This document shows, one piece after another, positions 26,833 to 29,740 of a stretch of 62,937 nt of DNA. Source of the stretch: Rickettsia typhi (GTDB lineage Bacteria > Pseudomonadota > Alphaproteobacteria > Rickettsiales > UBA1997); NCBI GenBank assembly GCA_945862075.1, contig CAMAWV010000003.1, positions 1 through 62,937 of the forward strand, written 5' to 3'. The notes under the pieces are model-generated. The model worked only from the letters and a program-made list of their open reading frames with translations. It was not told the origin of the DNA and did not search any database. Positions within the stretch are counted from its first letter, which is position 1. Every line of letters begins with the position of its first letter. A program made the translations under genes and the position numbers.

Positions 26833-28845
26833 TTAGTTAGCTAAAATTTTAGTTATAAAATCAAGAGCAGGCAAAATTTTATCAGAATTTACACCAAAGC
26901 CCATCGCTAAATCTTTTTTACCGCCACCGCCTTTACCTTGTAAAATTTCTACAACATTGCCAATATTTTGCCCAGCATCAAAATTAGCCACCGAACTTGC
27001 TAACAAAACATTAACTTTACTATTATTTTCGATACCAAAAAAAACAATAACTGCTGGCATATGAACTTGATTTGATTTTTGATAAATACTTAAAATATTG
27101 CGTAAATCGGCAATTGAAGCATTATGAAAAGTTTGATGAATCAAATAATAATTAGCAAAATTTTGAATGTTAGTATTAACAATACTTTGTTGCCAAAGTT
27201 GTTGTTTTAGCTGGAGAATTTCTTTATCTTTTTGTTTTTGTTGCTGTAAAAAATCAATTCCAATTTGATTAGTTTTTTGCAAAACTAATGTAGTTGCTTG
27301 TTGTTGAGTATGATGAATAATATTTTCTTGATTTTCATCGATGAAAAAACTATTGTCATCAAAACCAACTTTATTTGATAAAAACTGACTTTCGGCAATT
27401 TTTGCTTCTTCAAATTGTTGTTTGATTTTTAAAGAATCAAGCAAGGCATAAAGTTTTTGCTCTTGCAATTTTAAATGTTGCAGAGCATAAAAACCAGTTT
27501 TTGCGGTAATTCTTCTGATGCCAGAAGCAATACCGTTTTCATTGATTATTTTAAATAAACCAATATTACCAGTGTTAGCAACATGGGTTCCCCCGCATAA
27601 CTCGTGCGATTGCCCCATTTGCACCACTCGAACTGTATCGGCATATTTTTCGCCAAAAAGAGCTTCGGCACCTTCTTGTTTTGCCTGCTCCAAGCTCGTT
27701 ATTTTAGTTTGCACAGGAGAATTTTGCCTGATGTAAAAATTTATTAACTCTTCTATTTGTTGCAATTCTAGATGATTTACCGCTCTGTTAAAATTAAAAT
27801 CAAAAGTGAGCTGATGCGCATCGACATTTGAACCTTTTTGAGTAATGGCATTGCCTAAAACTTGCTTTAAAGCCTTGTGTAAAAGATGAGTAGCAGAATG
27901 ATTTTGAGCTCGAAGTTGGCGATTTCTCTGATTTACCAAGGTTGTCACTTGATTTCCTACTGCAAATTTTCCAACTCCACAAGCAACTAAATGCAAAAAT
28001 AAACCACCTGCCACTTTTTTGGTTTCTTTAATATCAAGATAGCTTGATAATTTTTGATAACTAAGATTTTCTTGATAATTTTCTTGTAAAATAATGTTGC
28101 CATCATCGCCTTTCTGCCCACCAGAAGTAGCATAAAATGAAGTGTTGTCTAAAATTATGGCGATTTGTTGGGAGTTTTCTTGATTAAGATTAATATTTTC
28201 TACCAATTTATTGCCCACCAAAATTCCTAAAATTGTTGCTTTAGCAATAGTTGAAGTATGATAGCAATTTTGTGTGTTGCCAAATTGTTGTTGCAAAGCA
28301 AAAAATATAGCATCTTCAGCCTGTTCGCCACTACCTATCCAGCTATTTTTGGCTTTTTCTTTTTGTTGTTGCATGGCTTGCTCAAACTCTTGCAAATTAA
28401 CTGTAATGTTTTTTTCTTGACATATTTGCTGAGTTAAATCAAGCGGAAAACCATAAGTATCGTAAAGTTTAAAAGCAACTTCGCCTGATAATTGTTGATT
28501 GATTATTTGAGTTTCATCAAGTATTTTTAAGCCTTTTTCAAGTGTTTCTAAAAATTTTTGTTCTTCAAAAAATAAAGTGTTGGTGATGGTATCTTTTGCT
28601 CTTATTAACTCTGGATAAGCCTCGCCCATTTCGGCAATTAAAGTATCAACCAATAAATGCATTAGCGGTTTTTTTTTGCCAAAATTATAGCACTGCAACA
28701 TTGCTCTACGCATAATTCGACGTAGCACATAACCCCTACCTTCGTTGCTTGGCAAAATACCATCGGCAATTAAAAAACAAGAAGAACGAAGATGATCGGC
28801 GATAATTTTAAATTGTGGATTTATAGACAAATTGTTGGCAAGCAT
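26833..28845 (-). CDS. alaS: AlaRS-derived protein lacking the aminoacylation domain (tRNA-recognition, editing and C-Ala domains only)
   Basis: Begins [48 protein letters not shown], which in E. coli AlaRS lies near residue 280. It keeps [27 protein letters not shown], CGGTH and [13 protein letters not shown]. I chose the ATG at 28845, just after the EamA stop. The track start at 28902 overlaps EamA. Confidence 0.85.
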   Translation of the reverse strand: [670 protein letters not shown]

Positions 28846-28855
28846 ATTTAACAAG

Positions 28856-29740
28856 TTATTTAAAAATTTTGTGGTAAAAAAAATCAAGCGAAAGAGCGAC
28901 AATAATTAATAACAAACCAATAGTACTGATAAGTTGAAATTGATAATTTTCAAAAAAACTCGAAACTGCAAGAGCAATAACAGGATAAACCAAGGCGGTA
29001 TAATTAGCTTTAGCAGTGCCAATTTTTTGGATTAAGTAATACAAACACACAAAAGCTAAAATTGAAGCAAAGAAAATTTGATAAATCAACGAACCAACAT
29101 AAGAATAGCTAGAATCAAAATTAAATTTATAGCCCAAAACCAAGCTATAACACAAAAAATAAATAGCCCCAAATGCCGAAGCAAAAGAAATAGTAGTAAA
29201 GAGCGGAGTATGATTTTTTTTACTGTTGCAGGCCACCAAATAATTACCAAACGAAAAAACCAACATCATTAAAAAAGCATAAACAAAGCCAATTATTGGC
29301 AAGCCACTATTATTTTGCAAAACTTTTGGCAAAATAAAAAAAGCCAAACCAATGGTGCCAATAAAACCACTTAATAAAATTTTTTTACTAATTTTATGAC
29401 CATCAAGCCAAGCTTTTATTAACTCAGAGCTAATTACCGACAAACTAAAAATAACTGCAATAATACCACTTGGAATAATTTTAGTAGTATGATAACCAAT
29501 AAAAAAATTTAACGAAAAATTACAAAGAGCAATAAATAACAGATAAATAAATTCGTTTTTTTTTAGTTTTAGCCTAGTTTTGGTAAAAAAACAAACCGCA
29601 AACATAATGATTGAAACTGCAGAAAACCGATAAAATAAAGATATTTCTGGTGCAACAAGTTGAGTTGAGATTTGCAATTTCATTGCAAACCAACTAAAAC
29701 CCCAAGCTAAACACATTCCGATAAATGCTAAAATAATCAT
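28856..29740 (-). CDS. EamA/DMT-family transporter
   Basis: Ten-TM profile formed by two EamA-like halves. Confidence 0.8.
   Translation of the reverse strand: MIILAFIGMCLAWGFSWFAMKLQISTQLVAPEISLFYRFSAVSIIMFAVCFFTKTRLKLKKNEFIYLLFIALCNFSLNFFIGYHTTKIIPSGIIAVIFSLSVISSELIKAWLDGHKISKKILLSGFIGTIGLAFFILPKVLQNNSGLPIIGFVYAFLMMLVFSFGNYLVACNSKKNHTPLFTTISFASAFGAIYFLCYSLVLGYKFNFDSSYSYVGSLIYQIFFASILAFVCLYYLIQKIGTAKANYTALVYPVIALAVSSFFENYQFQLISTIGLLLIIVALSLDFFYHKIFK

Follow-up and report, generated by a model that had tools for sequence, protein, structure and literature searches.

Within a 62,937-nucleotide stretch of a contig assigned to Rickettsia typhi (assembly GCA_945862075.1, contig CAMAWV010000003.1, positions 1 to 62,937; hereafter the window), we analysed an alaS-derived gene, here alaS-beta, whose product carries the tRNA-recognition, editing and C-terminal parts of alanyl-tRNA synthetase (AlaRS) in the absence of the aminoacylation domain. 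The gene is very likely the beta subunit of a two-polypeptide AlaRS. A preliminary description made from the sequence had offered this as one of two readings, the other being a large free-standing AlaX-like trans-editing factor, and it gained support from three findings: a matching family of stand-alone catalytic cores (alpha), the co-occurrence of the two halves in a close and in a distant relative, and the exact fit of one half to the other.

The large half and its domains

The reading frame between 26833 and 28902 given in the preliminary description is indeed uninterrupted, while the start at TTG 28902 did not stand, as this codon overlaps the stop codon of eamA. The likely start is instead ATG 28845, 10 nt past the eamA stop, since in all homologues 6-12 residues precede [10 protein letters not shown]; every homologous sequence read starts a few residues ahead of this segment. 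The further claim that the gene lacks the aminoacylation domain and starts near E. coli residue 280 agreed with tblastn, Pfam and TIGR00344; the homology begins at about residue 278. With E. coli AlaRS as the tblastn query, an approximate sequence used as a guide only, residues 278-722 aligned to 28821..27427 of the window, and residues 1-277 of this approximate query had no match at E<10 in the six frames of the 63 kb. Pfam assigned to beta only profile positions 264-550/552 of tRNA-synt_2c (PF01411), followed by tRNA_SAD and DHHA1. Similarly, the NCBIfam alaS model TIGR00344 was covered at positions 263-846/847 with 472.2 bits, which passed the cut-off of 457.05, and beta alone gets the name alanine--tRNA ligase. 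Positions 1-262 of that model are not covered, and the class II catalytic core with its motifs 1-3 is missing from the polypeptide. Matches in the PDB, all to solved forms of the catalytic fragment from E. coli, started at residue 277 of 3hxu. Beta showed 40% identity to E. coli AlaRS across the aligned region, and the archaeal model TIGR03683 scored it 267, against 472 for the bacterial TIGR00344.

The residues on which tRNA recognition and editing depend in E. coli are retained. It has been reported that E. coli AlaRS reads the G3:U70 pair through N303, which recognizes U70, and D400, which recognizes G3 (PMC11392972). Their equivalents in beta, Asn34 (codon 28744-28746) and Asp129 (codon 28459-28461), are both located in the helical recognition domain and are invariant in an alignment of 13 beta sequences. 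The editing residues H316, H320, Q336, C417 and H421, which correspond to E. coli H564, H568, Q584, C666 and H670, are invariant in the beta alignment as well, and GGKGGGGK in the C-Ala domain is conserved across it. Codon arithmetic reproduced the positions previously given for the HSATH and CGGTH motifs, and the C-terminal motif [13 protein letters not shown] is present as described. AlphaFold2 (AF2) models, which were of only moderate confidence owing to shallow alignments and served for domain boundaries and fold identity alone, gave predicted local distance difference test (pLDDT) values of about 80-90 at residues 10-168 and about 85-92 in C-Ala. Two beta proteins, P0083 (749 aa) and P0085 (735 aa), carry an insertion of 60-80 residues in the helical tRNA-recognition domain, after 'LKILDEEI'.

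Beta homologues formed at least 120 protein clusters at 90% identity, which were 47-97% identical to the window protein, nearly all 660-690 aa long and present on contigs of up to 1.52 Mb. Submitters labelled the organisms carrying beta or alpha as Rickettsiales, Rickettsiaceae or just Proteobacteria. This distribution bears on whether the short gene could result from misassembly where EamA meets alaS, or be a recently formed pseudogene beside, or following the loss of, the catalytic part, a reading that we consider scarcely credible. The window does hold at least one gene remnant, an MmeI fragment, and the flanks of beta are rearranged relative to a relative; however, the same start is shared by the at least 120 clusters down to 47% identity, and no remnant of the N-terminal domain was found in any frame of the window. 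An identical beta protein with the same EamA/beta junction is also present on ENA contig ERZ27280272:k141_936090, which ends elsewhere than the window, indicating that the junction was assembled independently, and the junction recurs in loci L002, L087, L095, L096 and L101. Misassembly, which the preliminary description had named as a refuter, is thus excluded by the recurrence of the short architecture and of the junction in many independent assemblies. Neutral evolution, which together with a full-length copy elsewhere was the second refuter named, is likewise excluded, judging from the ratio of nonsynonymous to synonymous substitution rates (dN/dS) between the window gene and that of L101 (82% identical), which was about 0.11 overall, with 0.09 in the tRNA-recognition part, 0.08 in the editing part and 0.18 in the C-terminal part; the ratios are rough, as dS is about 1 in this comparison.

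The catalytic half

The first alpha protein, P0271 (265 aa), was obtained with an N-domain fragment from a library of representatives at 50% identity and ends cleanly after the catalytic core. P0271 as query retrieved at least 120 clusters of 259-266 aa, 69-77% identical to it, with PF01411 as the sole Pfam domain. The motifs CVRAGGKHND, DNFW, EIWNLVFMQ and DTGMGLER were invariant in a sample alignment, and the alpha genes were complete, internal to their contigs and situated between unrelated genes. Alpha covers positions 1-247/249 of TIGR00344 and 1-257/259 of PF01411, and its AF2 model superimposed on the E. coli AlaRS catalytic fragment with a template modelling (TM) score of 0.83. The TIGR00344 scores of alpha, 371-393, fall below the cut-off of 457, and the proteins are often labelled hypothetical or 'related protein'; annotation pipelines may consequently score alaS as truncated in such genomes, or mis-score the split marker in completeness estimates.

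When alpha and beta were aligned jointly with the E. coli enzyme, alpha ended at E. coli residues 272-275 and the homology of beta began at about 278, placing the split site in the variable loop 'TGATDLSNK'. By this alignment, the two halves together cover AlaRS with neither gap nor overlap. Of 66 metagenome contigs matched by a degenerate DNA pattern for a motif typical of alpha, 38 carried complete split alpha genes (all 29-43% G+C, at least 70% identity) and 16 carried longer, apparently full-length alaS genes (all 52-66% G+C).

Two other searches returned one-piece genes. A Rickettsiaceae N-domain search gave only fragments or frameshifted pieces of full-length alaS (at least 64% identity), with no alpha among the listed matches. 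A profile scan with the beta alignment gave, among the matches listed, only ordinary full-length alphaproteobacterial alaS, save one locus cut at a contig end, and no close relatives of the window gene among them; the full-length genes supplied the outgroup and the N-domain queries. We also noticed P0185, an AT-rich AlaRS N-terminal protein of 341 aa (20 members, contig of 472,616 bp) that extends beyond KIIADH and ends at about residue 341, perhaps a frameshifted or partial call, perhaps another break point in another lineage.

Co-occurrence, descent and proposed assembly of the two halves

Both halves were found on a single contig of 158,799 bp (JGI 3300023174|Ga0214921_10000103), with alpha at 1710-2498 (+) and beta at 36868-38889 (+), 34.4 kb apart; this beta is 82% identical to that of the window. 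Consistently, beta cluster P0004, also 82% identical to the window protein, and alpha cluster P0477 share the longest-contig sizes 71059, 42919 and 235851, and members of the two clusters have GenBank numbers near each other (NBR95302.1 and NBR95581.1). In a distant lineage, whose beta is about 47-50% identical, beta MCE3255078.1 and alpha MCE3255667.1 are both labelled Rickettsiaceae bacterium with numbers 589 apart, and very probably come from one metagenome-assembled genome. The guessed pairs P0500/P0067 and P0403/P0119 were rejected as coming from different samples.

The two genes are widely separated. The surroundings of beta contained no alpha in six lineages, five of them read to ±10 kb and the sixth to ±3 kb, and in none of the loci read were alpha and beta adjoining or co-transcribed. 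The recurrent contexts of alpha itself were TerC-Maf-GTP cyclohydrolase I-OmpH-alpha-AnmK (L090, L093, L094), TrpRS-NadA upstream of alpha (L088, L097), and EF-Tu/S10 ribosomal operon-outer membrane protein (OMP)-alpha-DAO-type oxidoreductase (L098-L100).

Neighbour-joining (NJ) trees were built from beta or alpha sequences together with 26 full-length alphaproteobacterial AlaRS sequences, with E. coli as the outgroup. Beta was monophyletic in 100/100 bootstraps and alpha in 87/100, and the sister of the beta clade was L067, the full-length AlaRS of an uncultured Rickettsiaceae bacterium. Since both halves are monophyletic, the trees point to a single ancient fission within Rickettsiales that has been inherited ever since.

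On the model that we propose, an ancestor within Rickettsiales would have split alaS in the variable loop at the surface that links the class II core to the recognition domain at its first helix (E. coli about 272-278). Alpha, of about 262 aa and encoded at a separate locus, retains motifs 1-3 and every alanine- and ATP-binding residue and would make alanyl-adenylate. From beta would come the helical domain for the acceptor stem, including the Asn and Asp that recognize U70 and G3, together with the beta-barrel and a zinc-type editing site (HxxxH/CxxxH) for clearing Ser- and Gly-tRNA-Ala; its coiled coil with C-Ala would serve tRNA-elbow binding and oligomerisation. The two chains would rejoin non-covalently through the native interface between core and recognition domain, yielding a G3:U70-specific proofreading AlaRS in which both halves are needed for charging. 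As reported previously, E. coli AlaRS fragments of fewer than 442 residues are unable to charge tRNA, and alpha and beta of Nanoarchaeum equitans together show strong G3:U70-specific charging (PMC11392972). As alpha is an adenylate-forming core only and such short E. coli fragments do not charge, we infer that alpha and beta re-associate.

If beta were instead an autonomous trans-editing or tRNA-Ala-binding factor, in effect an oversized AlaX, charging would fall to alpha alone or to a full-length AlaRS. The editing site is intact and beta could fold independently, free-standing AlaX proteins exist, the AlaXM model does find a weak match in beta, the genes are nowhere adjacent or co-transcribed in the loci read, and alpha of N. 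equitans is weakly active by itself, without dependence on G3:U70 (PMC11392972). Yet the AlaXM match (NF040865) reached only 91.3 bits against a cut-off of 300. Beta has also kept, under strong constraint (dN/dS 0.09), a full acceptor-stem recognition domain that AlaX proteins lack, with both G3:U70 readers invariant. Moreover, alpha stops exactly where beta starts and has none of the elements for tRNA recognition, E. coli fragments of comparable extent do not charge tRNA (PMC11392972), and the halves show parallel monophyly and co-occurrence. The AlaX-like reading of the preliminary description accordingly fits poorly, and we regard it as improbable.

A related and similarly doubtful idea is that the fission uncoupled the activities, leaving alpha as a partly autonomous alanine activator and beta as an independent proofreading and handling factor specific for tRNA-Ala. 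Charging of tRNA or of a minihelix by alpha might then not depend on G3:U70, or alpha might charge another acceptor. If this were true, separate expression would tune charging against editing, and the pair would correspond, in living bacteria, to the proposed 'urzyme plus later-added specificity module' stage in the evolution of synthetases.

Covalent joining of the halves into a one-piece AlaRS, by a split intein or by trans-splicing, has no direct evidence in its favour, although split inteins do restore other split essential genes, such as cyanobacterial DnaE. Here alpha ends 0-11 residues past the core and beta has 6-12 residues before its first conserved helix, tails so short that they leave no room for intein halves, and Pfam detects AlaRS domains only. 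We therefore give this route almost no weight.

Some observations do weigh against the two-subunit AlaRS. No alpha was found in the six frames of the 63-kb window by tblastn; an alpha elsewhere in the window's own genome, and the absence of a full-length alaS from it, are only expected. The 34-kb spacing in the relative predicts an alpha just past the window end, which was not borne out: the last open reading frame (ORF) is a DNA methylase and the synteny is rearranged. The gene order around beta also differs between the window and L101, and genomes of the clade might, against expectation, carry a full-length alaS beside both halves. Finally, alpha and beta have different sister groups (L040 and L067, respectively), and the NJ trees are simple distance trees.

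Known systems and the surroundings of the gene

Throughout biology AlaRS is regarded as having one prototype architecture, with the split enzyme of Nanoarchaeota as the cited exception (PMC10036535), a view also expressed in PMC8887476 and PMC10485164. In the literature searched we found no earlier description of a bacterial split AlaRS, and the Nanoarchaeota split was the only one found. The nanoarchaeal enzyme (NEQ547 alpha/NEQ211 beta in N. equitans) is likewise encoded by two distant genes, with alpha as the catalytic core, and its beta, like that of the window, carries the G3-reading Asp, the editing domain and C-Ala (PMC11392972, PMC10036535). In contrast, alpha of N. equitans is equivalent to E. 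coli 1-368, with the U70-reading Asn included, whereas the split described here lies at about 272-278, about 95 residues earlier, leaving both G3:U70 readers in beta. As the sequences are of bacterial type, the Rickettsiales split originated independently of that in Nanoarchaeota; it is fixed in a large, deep clade, compared with a few tiny genomes in Nanoarchaeota.

One-piece bacterial AlaRS enzymes (E. coli, L067) have the same four collinear modules as concatenated alpha and beta, with the functional residues conserved, the difference being that the core is here a separate chain. The sizes of the halves (262 + 670 aa) recall bacterial glycyl-tRNA synthetase (GlyRS), which likewise pairs a small catalytic alpha subunit (GlyQ, about 290 aa), a homologue of the AlaRS core, with a large tRNA-binding beta subunit (GlyS, about 690 aa), and a Foldseek comparison of the alpha model with GlyRS alpha gave a TM score of about 0.48. 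GlyS, however, has neither an AlaRS-type editing domain nor C-Ala, whereas the beta protein studied here is plainly AlaRS-derived. In addition, glyQ and glyS are normally adjacent, while the alpha and beta genes lie far apart. A common origin of AlaRS and GlyRS is discussed in bioRxiv 10.1101/2023.05.29.542759. AlaX proteins (AlaXS/M/L) also possess an HxxxH/CxxxH editing domain without a catalytic core, but they lack the acceptor-stem domain and are much shorter. The mini-AlaRS of Tupanvirus departs from the AlaRS prototype too ([quoted passage not shown]; PMC10036535), while in the present case all domains are kept, on two chains.

The system would represent a deep and abundant bacterial clade in which AlaRS is split exactly at the boundary between core and tRNA recognition, at a site unlike that in Nanoarchaeota. 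As a natural experiment, it may show whether a bare class II core and a detachable specificity and editing module can work together as an accurate synthetase. It also allows ideas derived from N. equitans on the late arrival of G3:U70 recognition to be tested independently, and it converges on the alpha/beta arrangement of bacterial GlyRS, the closest relative of AlaRS.

Table 1. Positions of alaS-beta, its domains, the genes upstream and the alanine tRNA in the window
Feature	Coordinates	Strand	Details
alaS-beta coding sequence	26833..28845	-	670 aa; ATG at 28845, stop 26833-26835; mechanical ORF reaches TTG 28902
Helical tRNA acceptor-stem recognition domain	28342..28818	-	Beta residues 10-168; PDB 3hxu residues 277-437
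Editing domain	27436..27948	-	About residues 300-470; HSATH 27886-27900; CGGTH 27583-27597; Pfam tRNA_SAD 27508-27633
C-Ala/DHHA1 domain	26839..27144	-	Motif [13 protein letters not shown]; Pfam DHHA1
Tight same-strand genes upstream of beta	28856..32816	-	ybaB, bioB, RNase J, eamA
ybaB	32502..32816	-	
bioB	31487..32491	-	
RNase J	29740..31515	-	
eamA	28856..29740	-	
tRNA-Ala(UGC)	47676..47751	-	G3:U70; encoded CCA end (ARAGORN, Rfam)

The coordinates are collected in Table 1. EamA, RNase J and BioB are encoded intact upstream of beta on the same strand, as had been noted from the sequence, and the short distance of 10 nt between the eamA stop and the beta ATG makes co-transcription likely. 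A scan for promoters and terminators performed no better than on shuffled sequences. The same upstream order was found in L002, L087, L095 and L101, and blastn aligned the window to L101 with 81% identity over 6 kb. On the other side of beta (12093-14122 in L101), L101 continues directly with a Complex1_49kDa-family gene and panC, whose counterparts in the window are at 6010-8038; about 19 kb (8040..26830, including Slt, DUF900 and tRNA-Val/Gln) has been inserted or rearranged in the window relative to L101. The tRNA-Ala(UGC), for which the G3:U70 pair had been correctly described, is the presumed substrate.

Several other features of the window were recorded. Convergent with beta, a Lys/Asn-rich orphan ORF of 183 aa at 26257..26808 (+) overlaps the end of the Slt-like gene; it is a gene call in the ENA record and had no Pfam match. 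At 1..5085 (-) lies an open frame, at least 1695 codons long, that runs off the window start; it has a Thr/Pro/Asn-rich end and no Pfam match, and may encode a giant surface or secreted protein. An MmeI-type (type IIL) restriction-modification enzyme is represented at 45115..45948 (-) by a 277-aa fragment that keeps only the final part of the N-terminal domain, the helicase spacer and the first ~50 methyltransferase positions. The fragment is probably a gene remnant and the single clear pseudogene noticed in the window, where coding density is otherwise high; the earlier characterization of the genome as decaying and pseudogene-bearing was borne out only weakly, by this one case. The product of 54449..56698 (-), 749 aa long, has ankyrin repeats; its match to Sel1 is weak and does not reach the Pfam cut-off. 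Ankyrin repeats are typical of effectors of intracellular bacteria, and in relatives ankyrin, SidC_N and TrbL genes lie close to one or other of the two halves. The G+C content of the window, about 30%, together with the ankyrin-repeat protein, is consistent with a Rickettsiales-type lifestyle.

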